DNA of 48,306 nt from a virus, in IMG/VR virus record IMGVR_UViG_3300015202_000001. The stretch is one strand, 5' to 3'. This document shows positions 370-37,805 of this stretch, piece by piece; positions within the stretch are counted from its first letter, which is position 1, and the number at the start of each line of letters is the position of its first letter. The notes below the pieces were generated by a model that was given only the letters and a program-made list of their open reading frames with translations, did no database searches and was not told the DNA's origin. Position numbers and translations under genes: made by a program.

Positions 370-397
370 TTGACAAATCCAAAATCTGTGGTATTTT
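370..397 (+). promoter_or_regulatory. Sigma70-like promoter TTGACA-N16-(TGg)TATTTT, antisense to the flanking minus-strand genes
   Basis: Perfect -35 hexamer, TG-extended weak -10; points into ORF-free DNA. Confidence 0.4.
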
Positions 398-404
398 TAA
401 TTCT

Positions 405-440
405 TATGTATATAGTATGTATGTATATTATATAATGTAT
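405..440. repeat. AT-rich TATGTAT-type element, copy A (related to 7639..7678)
   Basis: Shared core gtatatagtat plus gtat/tatata runs in both copies. Confidence 0.5.
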
Positions 441-474
441 CAGTTGATTAGTTAATCATTGAACCGTGCATAAA

Positions 475-509
475 GGTTTTGAGAGATGCGATAGCATCTC
501 GATAAAACC
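475..509 (+). ncRNA. Conserved bipartite hairpin, copy A (outer ggtttt/aaaacc, GA/GAT internal loop, inner gagatgc/gcatctc, loop gata)
   Basis: Inner 23 nt is 22/23 identical to 7265..7287; the outer 6-bp helix differs from copy B but stays complementary. Confidence 0.5.
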
Positions 510-551
510 ATATTGATAATCTAAAATTGAATATTTGTAATTAACAGATTG

Positions 552-584
552 GATAACGAATTCTGCGAAGCAGAATTCGTTATC
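552..584. other. Perfect 15-bp hairpin gataacgaattctgc / gcagaattcgttatc
   Basis: Inverted repeat read directly; no flanking U-tract on either strand. Confidence 0.7.
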
Positions 585-624
585 AGTTTGATTAGACTAA
601 AACTGTTAATTGATAGTTTATGAT

Positions 625-652
625 TCGTGCTTACGCCTTCGGCGTGTTTACG
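625..652. repeat. Conserved 28-nt hairpin motif tcgtgNttacgccttcggcgtgNNtacg, copy A
   Basis: 25/28 identical to 7522..7549; core acgcc-ttc-ggcgt stem-loop. Confidence 0.55.
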
Positions 653-784
653 AATTGGCTAACAGTAGATTATTCCGTTCGGACAAGAAGGGTTGCACTC
701 TCACAGTTATTCGTTTACGTTACGTTCTGCGAACGAATTAGCAGCGGGGATTATTTTTTTTATCAATTGTTTTTTGGTTCATCC

Positions 785-802
785 GAAACGCTGACGCGTT
801 TC
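785..802. other. Hairpin gaaacgc-tgac-gcgtttc
   Basis: Its complement gcgtcagcgtttc recurs at 104..116; variant gaagcgc-gtca-gcgcttc at 7339..7356 has a compensatory A-T to G-C change. Confidence 0.5.
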
Positions 803-864
803 GTCTGCCCCTTTTTCACACAATTTGCGTTTGGTTATTTTAACTGAAATATTGGTTTATTTAT

Positions 865-1014
865 TTAATCAACCATAAACTGCATCAAATGATCCAACAG
901 ATAATCTAATTCGAGAAAACGATTGTCAAATCCATCACAATTATCACATTCGGCTAAACCAGACGAGTTGCAATAATAGCACGGGATTAGTTTAGAATTA
1001 GGTAAATAAAGCAT
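865..1014 (-). CDS. Small (49 aa) zinc-ribbon-like protein, missed by the 60-aa ORF cutoff
   Basis: AGGAGG 10 nt upstream of ATG; MLYLPNSKLIPCYYCNSSGLAECDNCDGF... has CxxC-N7-CxxC. Confidence 0.6.
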   Translation of the reverse strand: MLYLPNSKLIPCYYCNSSGLAECDNCDGFDNRFLELDYLLDHLMQFMVD

Positions 1015-1064
1015 TAATATCAATCCTCCTAGTTATCAAAAATATTCTGCTATTTATCATTTTG

Positions 1065-1093
1065 GGATAATTCCGACAATGTCGGAATTATCC
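1065..1093. other. Perfect 13-bp hairpin ggataattccgac / gtcggaattatcc just downstream of the 1105..1581 gene
   Basis: Inverted repeat, 3-nt loop; contains TTATCCAGA (8/9 match to a DnaA box); no U-tract. Confidence 0.6.
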
Positions 1094-1104
1094 AGATTAG
1101 TTAA

Positions 1105-1581
1105 TTACCAATCTACACTGTCGTTAAGTGCATTCACCCAATATTTGCTTATAAACCAGTCATACTTACGACCAATTTTAACGATGTATTTGGACACTTC
1201 CATCTTATGCTTTGCCAGAAACATTTTGACAATCATATCATAAATAATCGTTTCGTGGTTTTGATATTTTGTATCGAATTCGGTTGAAATTTGCAACGCA
1301 ATCAATAAATGCTGCATCGTATCCTTGACCAAGTAATCAAAAGCAAAATCAATTCGATTAATATCGAAATCTGACAATTCGCGAATTAACTCGAAAGTTT
1401 TTTGCCAAGCCAAGAATTCAATACCGTGCTGCTTGTGAATATACACAATTTTTTCAACCTCAATTTCAACTTCAACAATACGAACTTTTTGATTATCTTT
1501 GCGTTTATTGTTACGGTTCTTTTTATCAAATAAATCGTCATCTTGATTTTCCAACATCCACTTATCGTAATTCACGAGCAT
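1105..1581 (-). CDS. Hypothetical early protein
   Basis: ORF track; co-oriented, tightly spaced operon; no motif recognised. Confidence 0.7.
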   Translation of the reverse strand: MLVNYDKWMLENQDDDLFDKKNRNNKRKDNQKVRIVEVEIEVEKIVYIHKQHGIEFLAWQKTFELIRELSDFDINRIDFAFDYLVKDTMQHLLIALQISTEFDTKYQNHETIIYDMIVKMFLAKHKMEVSKYIVKIGRKYDWFISKYWVNALNDSVDW

Positions 1582-1596
1582 TTTACATTATCCTTA

Positions 1597-1986
1597 TTAA
1601 TAACGACGTTTGCACAAATCGCGCAAACTGTCAGGGTCATCTTCAAAAACTACCTTAAACAGTTCGAAACAAATTGTTTCTAACATATCCGTTAAATAAA
1701 CCATTTGTTCAATGTCATTCAACGGTTCAAATTGATTACACAATTTGCTACTTCCAGCGTCGTAATACATTGCTGCATTATTGTAGAACAAATCATAATC
1801 CAAAATTTCAGCACGTTTGTGTTTTGCTAAACGAACTGTTTGTTTTGCTAACTGTTTATTCAATCTGAATATGACATTTTTGTCATATTCTCGCATACGC
1901 TTAAACAACGAATTCCGGTAAAGACTAGCGTTAAGTTTTAACGCTAGTTTTGCTGCTTTTGGAATTAACTCACTTATGGTTGACAT
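1597..1986 (-). CDS. Hypothetical early protein (start moved to MSTISELI)
   Basis: Internal ATG at 1986 gives a 17-nt overlap with the upstream stop at 1970; the longer track ORF would overlap by 86 nt. Confidence 0.65.
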   Translation of the reverse strand: MSTISELIPKAAKLALKLNASLYRNSLFKRMREYDKNVIFRLNKQLAKQTVRLAKHKRAEILDYDLFYNNAAMYYDAGSSKLCNQFEPLNDIEQMVYLTDMLETICFELFKVVFEDDPDSLRDLCKRRY

Positions 1987-2620
1987 TATTCCGCGCCACA
2001 ATTTCAAACCAGTTATCAACTCGATAACTGTATTCCAAATCAATCGTATATCCACCGTTATTGCGAATATCCCACAATAACCTTGACCACACGTGTTTCA
2101 CTTGCGGGTTTGCAAGAGAGTTTTGATGTTCCACATTTTTTGCTACCCAACGCGCGATTTTTTCACGTTTCCAGTTTAATTTATCATTCATGTACGTAAT
2201 CGCGCCGTGCAAGCTCGTTTTTGCGTGCATTTGTAAACAATAAAAATCTTCAATATTTGTCATTTCAGTTTCATTTTTGACAACTTGCCAAATCTCATAA
2301 TGCTGCTCATTCCAAATACCCGTCACACCCTCATAAGCCGCGCCAATTGCACAACTTTCGCCGTTAAAGGTGCTTGAACCATTAAAATAATTCCCAAAAC
2401 ATTGGGGACGGATTTTGCTACCGCGTAACATTGCCTGTGAAGTTTTGATTTTACACCTTATATTTCTGAATTTTGCTACTGTAATTTGCCACTTGAAATT
2501 TGCTACCTCAAAATACCAACAAATTCTTTTGGTATTATTTGAATTTTCCCAACATACTTTGTTGTAAAATCTGTTGGGTTTGACCGCCACAATAATATCA
2601 CAAATTGCTGATAAATTCAA
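1970..2620 (-). CDS. Hypothetical early protein (TTG start abutting the upstream stop)
   Basis: ORF track; TGA-TTG junction at 2620/2621. Confidence 0.65.
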   Translation of the reverse strand: MNLSAICDIIVAVKPNRFYNKVCWENSNNTKRICWYFEVANFKWQITVAKFRNIRCKIKTSQAMLRGSKIRPQCFGNYFNGSSTFNGESCAIGAAYEGVTGIWNEQHYEIWQVVKNETEMTNIEDFYCLQMHAKTSLHGAITYMNDKLNWKREKIARWVAKNVEHQNSLANPQVKHVWSRLLWDIRNNGGYTIDLEYSYRVDNWFEIVARNNVNHK

Positions 2621-3004
2621 TCAAATTTCTTGATATTCGACTACGGTCAATTTGCCGTCGAATTCGTTTTGACCGTGATACCAAACAAAGTCTTTTTGTG
2701 AGATACCAATGTTCGTATAACGGTTGATTTTCGTTTTCGTGCTTAGTGTGAAATACCCAAAGTTGTTAACGGACGTTGTGTAAACGTATCCCGCTTCTAC
2801 TACCCACAATGCACGATACGTCACAATCGGATAATCGTGGTATGTGATTTTGAAAACCTCATCACAAATACGCACAAGTTTTGTTTCACGTCCGCACAGA
2901 TTGATAACATCAGATTTTTTGCCGACAAACATCTTTTCGGCGTCTGCAAAGCATTTAATCTTCGGTTCGTTACGTCGGTTGAATGACATTTTTTGTTTTT
3001 CCAA
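2621..3004 (-). CDS. Hypothetical early protein (start TTG 3004 or ATG 2989)
   Basis: ORF track. Confidence 0.65.
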   Translation of the reverse strand: MEKQKMSFNRRNEPKIKCFADAEKMFVGKKSDVINLCGRETKLVRICDEVFKITYHDYPIVTYRALWVVEAGYVYTTSVNNFGYFTLSTKTKINRYTNIGISQKDFVWYHGQNEFDGKLTVVEYQEI

Positions 3005-3062
3005 ACTTTCTTTTTTGTTGTTTTTCTGAATTGTTTATACAAATTATTTGTATATCCGCGCG

Positions 3063-3119
3063 CTATTAATGCCCCGTTTACACCACTATTAATGCCGGCT
3101 TTACACTACTATTACCACT
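3063..3119. repeat. Tandem 23-nt direct repeat CTATTAATGCCssSTTTACACyA, about 2.4 copies
   Basis: Units start at 3063, 3086 and 3109 (partial); intergenic. Confidence 0.7.
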
Positions 3120-3142
3120 GTACCTACCAGTTCGGTAGGTAC
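3120..3142. other. 9-bp hairpin gtacctacc / ggtaggtac
   Basis: Inverted repeat directly after the tandem repeat; a second palindrome lies at 3036..3054. Confidence 0.6.
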
Positions 3143-3158
3143 TAATAGCTCGTATCTA

Positions 3159-3461
3159 TTAATAATCACCTTCACCATATCGAAAATCGTTTTCCAGACT
3201 TTCGTAATAATCCTCATAATCACCTACATATTCCAAATCATATGCCATACTTTCGTAATAATCCTGATAATCTACCATAAATTTATCCGTTTTAATTGCG
3301 TCTATGCAATGCACATAATATGCGCTTAACTTTGCGCTTACTATCTTGTAACTCCCTAGTCTTAACTTTAACCAAAAAAACTTTTTCTGATAAAAGTTTG
3401 TCCCAAAACATTTAATTGCATATTGATGTTTCTTGTGTATTTTCAATTCGTTTTTGTACAT
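3159..3461 (-). CDS. Hypothetical protein with acidic Tyr-rich C-terminal repeats (DYYES x2)
   Basis: ORF track; C-terminus YQDYYESMAYDLEYVGDYEDYYESLENDFRYGEGDY. Confidence 0.65.
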   Translation of the reverse strand: MYKNELKIHKKHQYAIKCFGTNFYQKKFFWLKLRLGSYKIVSAKLSAYYVHCIDAIKTDKFMVDYQDYYESMAYDLEYVGDYEDYYESLENDFRYGEGDY

Positions 3462-3498
3462 TGTGATACTTTCCTTGTCATTCTTATTAGCTGAATGA

Positions 3499-3529
3499 TA
3501 ACCCGAACCGATAAAATCGGTTCGGGTTA
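3499..3529. other. Perfect 14-bp hairpin taacccgaaccgat / atcggttcgggtta
   Basis: Intergenic; the T-rich tail (cttttc) is on the plus strand only, antisense to the genes. Confidence 0.6.
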
Positions 3530-3599
3530 CTTTTCAATTAATAATAATTTGCTCAATCTAATTCTAAAAAATAAGTGTAAAATCTATTTTTTTGTTGGT

Positions 3600-4229
3600 T
3601 TATTCTTGTGCGTCTAACTGCGCTAATTGTGCAAGTTGCGCATTACTTAGACGCCCCTTACCTGACAACCCCAAACGGGATTTTTGGGACACCCGTTTGA
3701 CGCCGTATCCGTTCTTAGCGCGCGTTTTACGCGTGCTTGTTTTTTCGTTGTCAGTTTCCGGCAAAAATCCGTAATCGATAAGCGTACGGATTTTTGCACG
3801 ATTTTCAATTTGTCGTACGTATTTCTCACTCAATTCGTATGTGTCGCAAGTCATACCGTAAATCGCGTTTTGAGTGTTGTCAAGACGATTTTTGATTGCG
3901 TCAATTTTGTCTGCAGTGATTGCAGATTTTGACTTTTCGGCGCGTGCTGCCAATTCTTCACTCACAATTGCATTAACAACACTTTCAAAATCGTCATCAA
4001 GCAAAATATCCTTATGAAGATTAAACACGCCTTCATATTTTTCTTGCGCCAAAAACAATTTGTTAAGATCCAAAATCGATTGTCGGCTCATATCTTGCGA
4101 TTGCGCGTTTCGTTGTGCTTGCGCGATAAACGCGCGGTTCGCACACAACAGGTTACCGTAACGCACTGCGAGCGAAAAAGCGTCACTCTTAGAAATTTGG
4201 TCTAGAGTCATTATGTCACTTACTTTCAT
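3600..4229 (-). CDS. Hypothetical early protein
   Basis: ORF track; C-terminal AQLAQLAQL repeat. Confidence 0.7.
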   Translation of the reverse strand: MKVSDIMTLDQISKSDAFSLAVRYGNLLCANRAFIAQAQRNAQSQDMSRQSILDLNKLFLAQEKYEGVFNLHKDILLDDDFESVVNAIVSEELAARAEKSKSAITADKIDAIKNRLDNTQNAIYGMTCDTYELSEKYVRQIENRAKIRTLIDYGFLPETDNEKTSTRKTRAKNGYGVKRVSQKSRLGLSGKGRLSNAQLAQLAQLDAQE

Positions 4230-4304
4230 TTATTTTCATTTAGACAATTATTTGTCTACTAATGTTCACAAGTTTATTGCACGCATTAGTAGAAAAATAA
4301 TTCA

Positions 4305-4386
4305 GACACACACACAACGGATAAATATAAATCTAAGTTTCTAAATCTAAGTTTTTAATAATAATTTTTTGTTGTGTGTGTGTGTC
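4305..4386. repeat. (AC)n/(GT)n inverted repeat enclosing a tandem aaatctaagttt x2
   Basis: gacacacacacaac 4305..4318 pairs with gttgtgtgtgtgtgtc 4371..4386; 12-mers at 4329 and 4343. Confidence 0.7.
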
Positions 4387-4428
4387 AATGCACAACTTAT
4401 GCAAGAAAGTTGTGCCCTATCGTTTCAT

Positions 4429-4752
4429 TTACGCCGTTTGTTTTGTGAAACGGCTGAACAACTTGAAACGATTGTTTAATAAAGTTTCTAGCTGCTCCTT
4501 TATGGTCTTGTTTTCTTTTTCAATGTGGGCGGAATATTCCGCCCACTGCTTATTGTCTTCCAATAGTTGCGCGTTTTGTGCGCGCAAATTTAGCAGTTCT
4601 TCTTCCATCGATTGCGCTTGCGCCAATTCCGCAAGTGTCAGTTCAATCATAATTGTTCTCTCGTTAGAGAACAATTTATTGTCGGCGTTTTTCTGTTTGT
4701 TGTTTTGATACATTTTTGACATACTTTCTATGAGTTTTGTTTTTTGTGACAA
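4429..4752 (-). CDS. Hypothetical coiled-coil protein
   Basis: ORF track; heptad-like Leu/Glu/Gln-rich sequence. Confidence 0.65.
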   Translation of the reverse strand: MSQKTKLIESMSKMYQNNKQKNADNKLFSNERTIMIELTLAELAQAQSMEEELLNLRAQNAQLLEDNKQWAEYSAHIEKENKTIKEQLETLLNNRFKLFSRFTKQTA

Positions 4753-4754
4753 TT

Positions 4755-5189
4755 TTATTCACTATCCCACATACTCGTAATACCATTGAGACGCGCAAAA
4801 CGCGCGTTTTCAATGTCGCCAATTTCTTGGCACAATTCGTTGCAAATTTTCCAATTGTCTGATATGAACACGATTTTACGTGTTTTGTAATATTTATCAG
4901 TTTGCGCGTCATGCAAACTGATAATGTTTCCAAACGTATAATACATCCCTAGTGAGGATGTATCCTCCAGATAAACGGCGTAAACTTTCGGTACTTCCAA
5001 TGAGCGGCAATACAAGTTGTAACAACGGAACGCCCCTAATGCGGCGTCACTAATGTTATCGTGCATCTCAATTATTCTTTGGTTTGGCTTAACGTCACCG
5101 ATTAAGCAATACTGAAACTTTGGCATACCATTAACATGTTTTTCGGTTACCGCGTAAACTTCTTTGTTGTCTTCGTTTTTGTTTTGCAC
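4755..5189 (-). CDS. Hypothetical early protein (GTG start, AGGA RBS)
   Basis: ORF track; gaggataaaaaatcGTG. Confidence 0.7.
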   Translation of the reverse strand: MQNKNEDNKEVYAVTEKHVNGMPKFQYCLIGDVKPNQRIIEMHDNISDAALGAFRCYNLYCRSLEVPKVYAVYLEDTSSLGMYYTFGNIISLHDAQTDKYYKTRKIVFISDNWKICNELCQEIGDIENARFARLNGITSMWDSE

Positions 5190-5212: not shown

Positions 5213-5454
5213 AGCAATCCGCTTGAATTAAATCACAAAACATTGTGATTTAATTCAAATTGATTGCTCACTGCATAATCTTTGCTATCAGTTATGCAGT
5301 GAGGGTTACTTATTCAATTTGTAATGTGCGTAAGCGTCTAATCCGCTTATAAGTGTGTCAAATACGTCACTGGACACACTTATAAATTGATTAGTGAGGG
5401 ATTGTGCGCTAATGGCGCACAATCCCTACAATGACCGTTATTTTCCGGTCATTG
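5213..5454. other. Battery of five consecutive long hairpins in one intergenic gap
   Basis: Stems at 5224..5257 (15 bp), 5267..5303 (12 bp), 5347..5385 (13 bp), 5397..5427 (13 bp) and about 5429..5454 (8-9 bp); none has a U-tract. Confidence 0.75.
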
Positions 5455-5695
5455 CCCGCAAGTATTTCTCTACCGCCGTTGTAAATGCAACGGCGGGATT
5501 CCTGTGCGTGTGCACATACTGACTGTTAATTCCAACCCGATATTCCCCCTTTACGAAAGTGACCCTAAAGTCAGGTTCAAACTTATTTTCCCCCCGTTTT
5601 ATCAGGATTTTATCACCCTGTGCATTTCCTTGGTTCTTAAGCGCGGCATCGATCACTTTGTTCATGACGGCGTTATTGGTTTGAAAACTTGACAT
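5438..5695 (-). CDS. First gene of the leftward arm, hypothetical 85 aa
   Basis: ORF track; directly downstream of a consensus promoter. Confidence 0.7.
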   Translation of the reverse strand: MSSFQTNNAVMNKVIDAALKNQGNAQGDKILIKRGENKFEPDFRVTFVKGEYRVGINSQYVHTHRNPAVAFTTAVEKYLRAMTGK

Positions 5696-5738
5696 GGTGA
5701 GGTCTCTCTCTCTCTTTTTTCACTTGCCTATGAAGACA

Positions 5739-5767
5739 ATTATACGCCCTAACACTTCTAATGTCAA
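5739..5767 (-). promoter_or_regulatory. Consensus sigma70 promoter TTGACA-N17-TATAAT (leftward)
   Basis: Reverse complement reads TTGACAttagaagtgttagggcgTATAAT; 12/12 match to consensus hexamers, 17-nt spacer. Confidence 0.8.
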
Positions 5768-5789
5768 GCGTTATTCTCGATTAGCTTTA

Positions 5790-5805
5790 TGTGATACCTA
5801 TCACA
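5790..5805. promoter_or_regulatory. Perfect TGTGA-N6-TCACA palindrome (CRP/FNR-type box or operator)
   Basis: TGTGAtacctaTCACA lies between divergent promoters, about 60-65 bp from each predicted start. Confidence 0.55.
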
Positions 5806-5821
5806 TCCGTTTAGTTTAATA

Positions 5822-5850
5822 TTGACGCCGTAAATACTCGTTTCGATAAT
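5822..5850 (+). promoter_or_regulatory. Sigma70-like promoter TTGACG-N17-GATAAT (rightward, into ORF-free DNA)
   Basis: Hexamers and 17-nt spacer read directly. Confidence 0.5.
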
Positions 5851-5994
5851 TATAACGATATTATGCGTTTTAGTAAGTTTTTACGTTGTTTTTTGTATTT
5901 GTACTATTTTTCACAATTAAAATCATAATTCTGCCCTCTTGCACGCTTGTGTCTCGTGATTGTACGTATCCAAAACGCCAGAAACCCACTAAAC

Positions 5995-6070
5995 AGGTCA
6001 TTCAAGCGGCGTCACATGTCATACTGCAATACTTGTATTGGCTTGTCTCTGGATAAGCCTAGAATGACCT
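5995..6070 (+). ncRNA. 76-nt element closed by a 9-bp helix (aggtcattc / gaatgacct) with internal small hairpins
   Basis: Inverted repeat 5995..6003 / 6062..6070; inner ggctt/aagcc stem at 6040..6059; about 140 nt downstream of the 5822 promoter. Confidence 0.3.
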
Positions 6071-6106
6071 TATTTGATGTGTTTGTTTTTACACTCTCTT
6101 TTATTT

Positions 6107-6130
6107 AGTAACTAACTTTTAGTAAGCAAT
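6107..6130. repeat. 24-nt direct repeat AGTAACTAACwTTwAGTAAGCrAT, copy 1
   Basis: 21/24 identical to 6217..6240, exactly 110 bp apart. Confidence 0.7.
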
Positions 6131-6216
6131 CGTTACAAAAATGACGAATTCGTATCCAAAATACTGTTTTCCTGATACATGTCTCCCAGGTAACGCGTTT
6201 TTGCTTTTCGTTCGTA

Positions 6217-6240
6217 AGTAACTAACATTAAGTAAGCGAT
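6217..6240. repeat. 24-nt direct repeat, copy 2
   Basis: See 6107..6130. Confidence 0.7.
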
Positions 6241-6259
6241 TATTGAGTGATACATATTG

Positions 6260-6275
6260 TGTGATACCTATCACG
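6260..6275. promoter_or_regulatory. TGTGA-taccta-TCACg box, second copy of the 5790 site
   Basis: 15/16 identical to 5790..5805. Confidence 0.45.
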
Positions 6276-36973: not shown

Positions 36974-37444
36974 TTAAACCTCATTCAATAATGCAAATTC
37001 CCCAAAAAGTTCGATTGCAGCATTATTATACGCAATTGCCGCGTCAATTTCATTTGCGAAATAACCCCAATATTTGTTTTTATTGTTACATTCAATTTGT
37101 GCCCGCCAATTGCCATCTCGTTTATAAAAACTAACGCCTTTGAAACGCGATGTTTTGGCGTATGTCCGCACTTTTTGATTGCGCCTGTTTTCAGAATTGC
37201 TGCAAACCCGTAAGTTTGACTTTTGGTTGTCAAGTGTATTGTGATTAATGTGATCCACATCAAACCCATCGGGACAATTTGTAACAAATCTGTGCATATA
37301 TTGAGTTTTGTACTTACCTTGTGAAATTGCTACGCCTCGCACTGCATATCCATGGGAAAAACACCAATTATATTGATTCAACTCATCAAAATCTTCATCG
37401 TCAATAATTGCATATTGCCCTTGTGTTAACTCAATTTGTTTCAT
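36974..37444 (-). CDS. HNH + AP2 homing endonuclease, paralogue 2
   Basis: Collinear with 8058..8528 (MKQIELTQG..., DHINHNTLDN, EIDAAIAYNNAAIELFGEFA); sits 5 nt upstream of the polymerase gene. Confidence 0.85.
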   Translation of the reverse strand: MKQIELTQGQYAIIDDEDFDELNQYNWCFSHGYAVRGVAISQGKYKTQYMHRFVTNCPDGFDVDHINHNTLDNQKSNLRVCSNSENRRNQKVRTYAKTSRFKGVSFYKRDGNWRAQIECNNKNKYWGYFANEIDAAIAYNNAAIELFGEFALLNEV

Positions 37445-37445
37445 G

Positions 37446-37805
37446 TTACAATACTCCATTCATCGATAAGAACGCTTGACAGATCAACAACGGAGTCATG
37501 ACATTGGCAGCAAAACTCGTCTTACTCCCCGTAATTTCATTTTCATAAATCACAATTGCGCCGTGCGAGCTTGTGTAATATTGCGCCGTATGGTTTTCGA
37601 TGTTCAAGTCGCGATAACAAAGTTCAAAATCACCCGTCCAATTCGGATAGATACTTGCGATATCTTCGGGCTTGCAAGTTATTGCAAGTACTTTGTTATT
37701 GATTACGGTTATTCCATCGTGCATCAGAACATACCACCCGCCCAATTGTTTTACAGTATAACCGAGAATTCCACCAATTTTTTCATTCATCTCGTAATCA
37801 TTCAT
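37446..37805 (-). CDS. Hypothetical protein
   Basis: ORF track. Confidence 0.65.
   Translation of the reverse strand: MNDYEMNEKIGGILGYTVKQLGGWYVLMHDGITVINNKVLAITCKPEDIASIYPNWTGDFELCYRDLNIENHTAQYYTSSHGAIVIYENEITGSKTSFAANVMTPLLICQAFLSMNGVL

Follow-up and report, generated by a model that had tools for sequence, protein, structure and literature searches.

The question raised by this locus is what a 35-nt hairpin in two parts does for the phage that carries it. The locus lies in a 48,306-nt stretch of viral DNA, IMG/VR record IMGVR_UViG_3300015202_000001, which was analysed as a whole and is called the window below. An earlier note on this DNA had described two copies of the hairpin. In the present study, we refer to the hairpin as HP1 and to its copies as HP1-A, HP1-B, and HP1-C. 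HP1 has a lower and an upper stem of 6-7 bp each, which are separated by a small purine internal loop, and it is capped by a tetraloop, which in all copies reads G-N-Y-A and is closed by a C-G pair. HP1 is a real, selected, and strand-specific hairpin in which pairing rather than sequence is conserved. Its action is most likely at the RNA level, with the loop serving as a pairing code.

Structure and conservation of HP1

The coordinates and sequences of copies A and B were confirmed as they had been described (Table 1). Their cores were identical at 22 of 23 positions, while the outer 6-bp helices differed at five of six pairs, all of which were Watson-Crick, again in agreement with the earlier note. 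The 23-nt core GAGAGATGCGAYAGCATCTCGAT occurred exactly twice in the window, compared with 0 occurrences expected from 100 shuffles. Folded as RNA, HP1-A reached -18.2 kcal/mol (z = -7.0) and HP1-B reached -20.4 kcal/mol (z = -5.9), and in each case none of 200 shuffles equalled the value. Both strands were scanned for the layout outer 6 bp-GA-inner 6-10 bp-GNNA-inner-GAT-outer, and the count of two copies had to be raised to three. The third copy, HP1-C, is on the minus strand and reads from 7737 to 7703; thus the claim that the plus strand is the RNA is valid for A and B only. Both helices of HP1-C are wholly unlike those of A and B, and what the copies share are the unpaired bases and the closing C-G pair. 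The common layout of the three is o6-GA-i7-GNNA-i7-GAT-o6, where o and i denote the outer and inner arms. We estimated the chance of such a third copy at ~4^-20 per position, or ~1e-7 over the whole window. The sense strand of HP1-C folded at -23.0 kcal/mol versus -19.0 kcal/mol for the antisense strand. A covariance model built from the copies recovered those of the window with E-values of 4e-16 to 1.5e-14, and the search with this model found no fourth copy in the window.

Homologous non-coding regions were recovered from six contigs (L001, L043, L047, L059, L060, and L061; Table 1). The covariance model and homologue search, which had been proposed as a check, yielded five more metagenomic homologues that preserve the pairing. 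For the pair counts, we used a model-based alignment (A4) of eight canonical copies, three from the window and five metagenomic, because MAFFT misaligned the 33-nt variants. It was observed that 99% of the cells were paired, compared with 28-49% in slid controls. Double-sided changes were found in 10 of the 13 HP1 pairs (19 cells), a one-sided change was found in none, and 0 of 500 shuffles reached the observed values of pairing and double changes. In one homologue, a single base pair had been lost symmetrically from both arms, and the L043 homologue of HP1-A carried compensatory changes. When the covariance model was scored by strand, the sense strand gave 24.6-59 bits and the antisense strand at most 15 bits. 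In ~665 kb of unrelated loci, nothing exceeded 23 bits, and even the top scorers there had been pre-selected for resemblance to the inner stem. The pair counts, the strand scores, and the null result in unrelated loci are the grounds on which HP1 is regarded as real, selected, and strand-specific. The earlier view of a selected hairpin that keeps pairing over sequence was therefore borne out, since eight homologues keep the fold through double changes.

The unpaired bases behaved differently from the stems. No variation was seen in GA, GAT, or the G..A ends of the loop among A- and C-type copies. In L001 and L060, copy B kept the tetraloop and a hairpin (4 bp, an AA/GA loop, and 9 bp), but lost GAT and shifted the internal loop. 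The conservation of GA opposite GA thus stood for A- and C-type copies and failed for the B copies of these two relatives. The tandem sheared G-A motif with a 1-nt bulge that had been suggested is possible; the energy model favoured another arrangement, an invariant G-U wobble with a 1x2 loop (A/GA), over the sheared tandem pairs and their bulged U. By itself, the sequence leaves either tandem G.A with a bulged U or G-U with a 1x2 loop. A kink-turn was rejected on the geometry that can be read from the sequence. Behind the 3-nt side (GAU), where a kink-turn has G-A for its tandem sheared pairs, the copies have A-A, G-A, or A-G, and between the helices the 5' side offers GA only. HP1 was also rejected as an intrinsic terminator, because its 3' flanks are AUAUUGAU (A), AACAAUCC (B), and AGAUUGAU (C, in sense), and none of the copies appeared in the terminator scan. 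As a separate observation, the outer arms of B (gAAGUC/GACUUc) contain the two 5-mers of C (gGACUU/AAGUCc) with the sides swapped. The arms of B could pair with those of C or of the complement of C, and this match may be due to chance.

Tetraloops of copies B and C

Within each genome that holds both copies, the loops of B and C were identical: GACA and GACA in the window, GGCA and GGCA in L001, and GGTA and GGTA in L060. The remaining loops were GATA in copy A of the window and GTTA in copy A of L043 and copy C of L059. In a three-way alignment of 2.9 kb with 15-17% pairwise divergence, the pattern AC/GC/GT was seen at the B loop and, in complementary form, at the C loop; apart from these, a single unrelated site showed it, which corresponds to a background of ~1 in 5800. 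No third co-varying loop partner was found in the shared 2.9 kb beyond B and C, nor was any other hairpin with a complementary loop found in the window. In the window and in L001, B and C have unlike stems beside these loops, which makes gene conversion unlikely there.

Because the two copies are on opposite strands (B plus, C minus), having the same loop makes cGACAg of B complementary to cUGUCg of the plus-strand copy of C. Complementarity between the B loop and the plus-strand C loop, as expected of kissing loops, was found in the window, L001, and L060 and was maintained through two coupled substitutions. The A loop GAUA pairs with UGUC via a G-U pair, which is possible in RNA only. The GA/GAU internal loop is dispensable for this tracking, because the B copies of L001 and L060 lost GAT. 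Collectively, the covariation of the B and C loops suggests that the loop is read out by base pairing. Tetraloops that kiss via their two central bases have been described for the GACG loops of Moloney murine sarcoma virus (MoMuSV) and for the guanidine-II riboswitch (PMC7357161).

Predicted RNA genes and genome setting

From sequence comparison, we conclude that HP1-A and HP1-C are near the 5' ends of two paralogous, oppositely oriented, predicted non-coding RNA genes of ~0.4 kb, which are called modules A and C (Table 1). The suggestion of a functional structured RNA is most probably right, as HP1-A is located between a conserved, predicted sigma-70-type promoter and a terminator composed of a hairpin and a U-tract. 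The promoter-like site P_A was kept in L043 although the sequence just upstream of it has diverged. A terminator hairpin followed by U5-U8 in the sense of the motif was present in five of five sequences (module A of the window and L043; module C of the window, L001, and L060), and the U-run of module C was kept in sense orientation in L001 and L060.

Table 1. HP1 copies, their homologues, and the predicted features around them
Feature	Position (strand)	Sequence or composition	Remarks
HP1-A	475..509 (+)	ggtttt GA gagatgc GATA gcatctc GAT aaaacc	covariance model 54.5 bits, E = 1.3e-14
HP1-B, solo copy	7259..7293 (+)	gaagtc GA gagatgc GACA gcatctc GAT gacttc	covariance model 54.3 bits
HP1-C	7703..7737 (-)	ggactt GA ggggtac GACA gtacccc GAT aagtcc	covariance model 59.2 bits, E = 3.9e-16
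Copy A of L043		ggtctt GA ggatgc GTTA gcatcc GAT aagacc	contig 77-87% identical to window; holds A
Copy C of L001 (= L039)		ggacgt GA ggggtac GGCA gtacccc GAT aagtcc	contig 81-90% identical to window; holds B and C
Copy C of L061		ggactt GA ggggtac GGCA gtacccc GAT aagtcc	C copy
Copy C of L060		ggactt GA ggatgc GGTA gcatcc GAT aagtcc	contig holds B and C
Copy C of L059		aaagct GA ggaagc GTTA gcttcc GAT agcttt	C copy
Copy B of L001 and L060		gaag AA gaaaaatgc GG(C/T)A gcatttttc GA cttc
Copies of L047			99.8%-identical strain; holds all three copies
P_A, promoter-like	370..397 (+)	TTGACA-16 nt-TGgTATTTT	~78 nt upstream of HP1-A; promoter scan 10/12 with TG
Module A, predicted non-coding RNA gene	404..816 (+)	AT-rich leader, HP1-A, hairpins, terminator	ends inferred from promoter and terminator
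Module A hairpins	552-584, 626-652, 723-735 (+)	552-584: 15 bp, perfect
Module A terminator	776..816 (+)	interrupted hairpin, loop UGAC, then CCUUUUU	from fold
Module C, predicted non-coding RNA gene	7325..7795 (-)	after promoter: HP1-C, AT-rich stretch, hairpins, terminator	inverted paralogue of A; 5' end uncertain
Module C promoter-like site, weak	7794-7789, 7772-7767 (-)	TTAACA-16 nt-CATTTT	paralogue of P_A
Module C hairpins	7591-7623, ~7524-7550, 7401-7415 (-)	7591-7623: 16 bp, perfect; 7401-7415: CCGAAC-loop-GTTCGG
Module C terminator	7325..7362 (-), read 7362-7325	GGUC-UUA-GAAGCGC-UGAC-GCGCUUC-AC-GACC then U7	from sequence and fold
P_B, putative promoter	7186..7219 (+), including palindrome; hexamer 7190-7195	TGTG-TATACT	no -35 match
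Operator-like palindrome	7204-7219	TGTGA-N6-TCACA	~40 nt upstream of HP1-B
P_C(+), promoter-like	7627..7655 (+)	TTGTTA-17 nt-TATAGT	promoter scan

The plus-strand flank of A is collinear over ~400 nt with the reverse complement of the C-to-B region. Among the shared parts, a short flank, TTAATCrTTrAACsGT, comes first and is followed by HP1 and then by the stretch CCAGATTGATAA. Part 4 is a long perfect hairpin of 14-17 bp, found at the same position in every genome; part 5 is a hairpin around ACGCC-loop-GGCGT with GAwTTGGCTAAC behind it; part 6 is a 5-6-bp hairpin; and part 7 is a bipartite hairpin with the loop UGAC followed by U5-U8. In an alignment of six module sequences, the 64 consensus pairs were 92.9% paired, compared with 26-40% after sliding, and double changes were present in 19 pairs, compared with 0-5 after sliding. 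Compensatory changes were observed in every module A hairpin when the window was aligned with L043, and the module C hairpins covaried across the window, L001, L059, and L060. The sense strand folded better than the antisense strand in five of the six modules. Some blocks of module A of the window were closer to module C of L001 than to module A of L043, and the reverse was also observed; this cross-matching indicates that the paralogues A and C exchange sequence.

The long hairpin of part 4 (552-584; 7591-7623; ~2317-2344 in L001; aligned in L059 and L060) was rewritten by compensatory changes or, in L001, replaced outright, and it has a T-rich tail behind it in plus orientation. It could be an RNase III site or a terminator. 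Two open reading frames (ORFs) that overlap these regions were rejected as genes. For the ORF at 620-847 (+), overlapping module A, neither a ribosome-binding site nor a family match was found, and its region evolves by compensatory stem changes; the ORF at 7770-8033 has its frame broken by indels in the relatives.

HP1-B follows TGTG-TATACT by ~65 nt, is just past the module C terminator, and points into module C. The putative promoter P_B and its palindrome were nearly invariant in L001 and L060. A further promoter-like site, P_C(+), faces rightward inside module C, and its -35 element reads TTGACA in L001 and TTGATA in L060 and L059. In a transcript predicted from P_C(+), the complement of HP1-C, with the loop UGUC, would be placed ~40 nt behind the 5' end, and the transcript would head toward the structural genes. 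Other signals were observed in the vicinity. In the non-coding 5.2-7.3 kb, operator-like repeats include an inverted TCACA-N6-TGTGA at 5230-5245 (within 5228-5250), as well as two copies of TGTGATACCTATCAC and two of AGTAACTAACwTTwAGTAAGCrAT (at 5787-5804, 6257-6274, 6107-6130, and 6217-6240). A sigma-70 promoter matching the consensus at 12 of 12 positions (TTGACA-17 nt-TATAAT; 5739-5767, minus strand) precedes an 85-aa ORF at 5438-5695 (-), which has no family match and is a candidate early regulator. An extended -10 element, TGgTACAAT, without a -35 element is located at 8011-8019 (+). It closely follows a terminator-like hairpin (7988-8006), precedes the first plus-strand gene by 30 nt, and was kept in L001, L060, and L061.

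The window represents a phage genome of ~48 kb. Minus-strand genes occupy 865-5189 and 5438-5695, and the ~2.3 kb from 5700 to 8048 is mostly non-coding. The plus-strand structural genes (8049-29205) begin with an HNH endonuclease, a small-terminase-like gene, a tRNA, a second HNH gene, and TerL, and a minus-strand replication block from 29253 to the end of the window encodes DNA polymerase, a DnaB-type helicase, a DnaG-type primase, a Cas4-like nuclease, and ThyX. Pfam and PHROG scans of ~44 ORFs, many of them unannotated, found no RNA polymerase, integrase, invertase, HUH enzyme, or other recombinase.

Several features of the genome were recorded apart from HP1. The window ends overlap by 127 nt (1-127 = 48180-48306) and look like a circular assembly. 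At the overlap junction, an additional 650-1160 nt is present in L047 (9112-9762) and L043 (2545-3707), and the small genes found there (105, 131, 135, and 137 aa) are paralogues with common 5' ends; the overlap is therefore probably a repeat collapse and not a true circle junction. The first minus-strand ORF of the window (ATG at 38 / 48217) is frameshifted after 13 codons. The tRNA gene at 9327-9415 (+), between the small-terminase-like gene and the HNH gene, scored 46.5 bits in Rfam, and ARAGORN reported 89 nt with a four-base anticodon 'taaa' and named no amino acid. Two paralogous genes resembling HNH-AP2 homing endonucleases share ~75% DNA identity; the one at 8049-8528 (+) is directly downstream of the C region, and the one at 36974-37459 (-) adjoins the DNA polymerase gene. 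A 51-nt tandem duplication (78% identical) was found at 3176-3277 inside the ORF 3159-3461 (-), and inverted (CA)n/(GT)n runs around a 32-nt spacer were found in the intergenic 4300-4389.

The searches located HP1 in very few genomes. In IMG/VR, the exact core pattern gave 0 matches, the degenerate core pattern gave 36, and the conserved 3'-flank pattern gave nine; the real match was L001 alone in both of the latter searches. In 185,579 reference genomes, the 3'-flank pattern gave 38 matches, which is the chance level, and none of them scored as HP1. A TerL-anchored scan of metagenome contigs returned no contigs beyond the same few. The nearest other relative, L038, a 50-kb Logan contig with a 49% identical TerL, contains neither HP1 nor the modules, and its non-coding regions hold tRNA-like repeats. 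No near match was found among GenBank phages, where TerL was at most 33% identical, to Thermus phages. At the gathering threshold, Rfam 15 matched only the tRNA in the whole window, and E-value searches of 300-900 and 7100-8100 gave chance-level matches of at most 20 bits, far under the gathering scores.

Possible modes of action and known systems

Our preferred reading has a probability of roughly 0.45. It holds that HP1 would act as an RNA hairpin in the products of two non-coding RNA genes and in the solo copy B, and that its tetraloop would kiss the antisense of HP1-C to control a rightward leader. The tetraloop would be a short 'address' read by base pairing, and the target would be the plus-strand copy of HP1-C near the 5' end of rightward transcripts toward the structural genes. 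Copy B would act in cis, non-coding RNA A in trans via the G-U pair, and non-coding RNA C as a true antisense. When HP1-bearing RNAs kiss the plus-strand C hairpin, the fate of the leader transcript would be set by pairing, processing, or termination, and the conserved internal loop may add a contact with a protein or a tertiary contact.

Several points weigh against this reading. No G-U pair was found in 101 cells of the HP1 stems, which is unusual for a constraint on RNA only, and the long neighbouring hairpins are also perfect Watson-Crick palindromes; together, these features suggest a constraint on both strands or on DNA. Convergent transcription could account for the absence of G-U at C but not for that at A. 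On whole modules, the strand test that compares G-U with A-C was weak (6 to 2). The loop covariation is based on the three genomes that hold both B and C, loops of four bases are small for kissing, and the YUNR motif fits the UAAC variant only (U-R-N-C on the complement). All promoters and RNA ends are predictions; the module C promoter is weak (8/12), and P_B has no -35 element and was absent from the promoter-scan list, so that its role as a promoter is likewise presumed. The HP1 family was found in one rare phage lineage only. No partner protein was identified, and the neighbouring small ORFs matched no RNA-binding or antiterminator family in Pfam or PHROG.

In an extended form, which we consider quite unlikely, a two-base address code would wire three non-overlapping transcripts, namely a trans-acting non-coding RNA of ~0.4 kb, its inverted paralogue, and a solo leader hairpin, to the antisense of HP1-C at the head of the rightward leader of the structural genes. 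This code would drift in step (AC, GC, GU, UU) among close relatives and give lineage-specific specificity, similar to heteroimmunity, in an apparently virulent phage, and GA/GAU would be a new motif for protein binding or tertiary contact. If the pairing code is real, HP1 would represent a phage non-coding RNA family that is undescribed and not in Rfam, with an exceptionally clean signature of three intragenomic copies whose stems are fully rewritten and whose seven unpaired bases are fixed. It would also provide a rare case of loop covariation between hairpins that are not encoded by the same DNA and would thus point to a minimal tetraloop-kissing code. Such a compact system of 35-nt hairpins with 2-nt swaps would be of interest for RNA-RNA recognition and late-gene control in phages of this group, of which none is in culture and for which hardly any regulators are annotated.

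The analogy with lambda nut boxB and HK022 put, drawn by the earlier note, did not hold as family membership: there is no boxA, the hairpin has the wrong dimensions, no N-like protein was found, and two copies are in units with terminators of their own. The boxA pattern YGCTCTTWA had no match within 1 mismatch near any copy, and the window held 19 matches versus 38.6 expected. The boxB of lambda combines a 5-bp stem with a GNRA-like pentaloop, whereas the 13 bp of HP1 are split over two helices and capped by a G-N-Y-A tetraloop. With regard to an N-family antiterminator, the neighbouring small ORFs had no Pfam or PHROG match, a search by which short arginine-rich proteins are easily missed. 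The put RNA of HK022 consists of two adjacent conserved stem-loops (~65-70 nt) immediately behind the promoter, and HP1 is one bipartite hairpin; next to it, an 8-bp hairpin (helix 1) was present in C-type modules only, had no double changes, and was broken in A-type modules. An N4-type hairpin promoter (5-7-bp stem, 3-nt loop) was rejected because no phage RNA polymerase was found among the ORFs and the dimensions of stem and loop differ. Folded single-strand recombination sites such as attC, the attP of CTX, and IS200/IS605 ends were rejected because no tyrosine recombinase or HUH transposase was found among the ~44 ORFs.

It is possible, if doubtful, that HP1 serves as an operator in RNA, comparable to lambda boxB with N, a coat-protein operator, or the site of a processing enzyme. 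A protein of the phage or the host would then read the GA/GAU loop and the G..A loop ends; the middle loop bases would not matter, and the identity of the B and C loops would be due to coincidence or micro-conversion. Invariant unpaired bases and a C-G closing pair with free stems are typical of protein-recognised hairpins, all three copies are near the predicted transcript starts, and A and B are one loop base apart, as are nutL and nutR. Nevertheless, the loop covariation in three genomes would be unlikely by chance at the background of ~1 in 5800, and the B copies of L001 and L060 still track the C loop after losing GAT and shifting the internal loop; the missing boxA and the lack of an RNA-binding or antiterminator family among the neighbouring small proteins also count against such an operator. 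A DNA hairpin would be consistent with stems that are strictly Watson-Crick, without G-T, and with the perfect palindromes nearby. On single-stranded or extruded DNA, HP1 would then be a single-strand initiation or primosome-loading site for the DnaG-type primase and the DnaB-type helicase, with B and C flanking an origin and priming outward and A as a third site. The phage encodes primase, helicase, and DNA polymerase. Copies B and C lie 444 bp from each other with a near-pure AT stretch (7639-7678) between them, and their placement on opposite strands fits outward priming. The cumulative GC skew has its minimum near 4-8 kb, but this switch coincides with the switch in gene orientation and is thus not independent evidence of an origin. 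We consider a DNA function clearly improbable, as the modules have promoter-like sites and U-tract terminators in the motif's sense, stabilisation by the invariant G...U(T) of the stem junction is limited to RNA, and priming gives no reason why the B and C loops covary while A differs by C-to-T. If HP1 did act as single-stranded DNA, the hairpins would show where the origin of these phages lies and where priming takes place.

Most improbable, in our view, is that B and C are inverted recombination sites around an invertible segment of ~410 bp, with the 4-bp centre as the crossover region. Because a crossover centre must match in the partner sites, recombination would explain the loop covariation; B and C are indeed inverted with an identical asymmetric centre in three genomes, and module A represents the content of the segment in the other orientation elsewhere in the genome. 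Against inversion, the searches of the ORFs gave no integrase, invertase, or HUH enzyme, the arms of B and C are wholly unlike, which a sequence-specific recombinase would not tolerate, the orientation was the same in four of four independent assemblies (window, L047, L001, and L060), and A has no partner site.

The preferred reading, in which the tetraloop of HP1 pairs with the antisense of HP1-C, can be compared with several known systems. The GACG loops of MoMuSV and of Moloney murine leukaemia virus (MoMuLV) and the ACGR loop of the guanidine-II riboswitch (PMC7357161) are also four-base loops on stable stems, in which the two central bases pair, as the corresponding bases covary in HP1. 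Those loops form self-complementary homodimers, whereas the complement of HP1 is found on the antisense copy only; the central dinucleotide of HP1 is self-complementary in the GGCA variants only, and there is no evident ligand or genome-dimerisation context. As in lambda nut and HK022 put, several hairpin copies follow soon after promoters in a phage control region and differ by one loop base and compensatory stem changes. Unlike nut, HP1 has a 13-bp bipartite stem and a tetraloop, and it is without boxA; the conserved two-stem architecture of put also appears to be absent. The ssiA and ssiB sites of RSF1010 and the primosome hairpins of phiX174 and G4 are similar to HP1 in being strand-specific, in their conserved unpaired bases, in their placement on opposite strands near an AT-rich region, and in the presence of a primase and a helicase encoded by the replicon itself. 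They differ in that HP1 lies inside promoter-to-terminator units, has a loop covariation that initiation would leave unexplained, and shows no sequence similarity to them.

Antisense regulation through kissing loops is known from RNA I/RNA II of ColE1, CopA/CopT of R1, the c4 RNA of P1 and P7, and the CI RNA of P4. These systems also use short-loop hairpins in which the loop sequence carries the specificity, and where a loop base varies among close relatives, the partner has changed along with it. Convergent, overlapping units with a counter-transcript promoter and the location of the element in a phage regulatory region are further points in common. The loops of HP1 have 4 nt compared with 6-7 nt in those systems and have no YUNR motif, HP1 adds the conserved GA/GAU loop, and the RNAs here are ~400 nt in length, occur as two paralogues, and are predicted from sequence. 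Moreover, the coupled hairpins B and C come from separate stretches of DNA, and the match between their loops is therefore not automatic.

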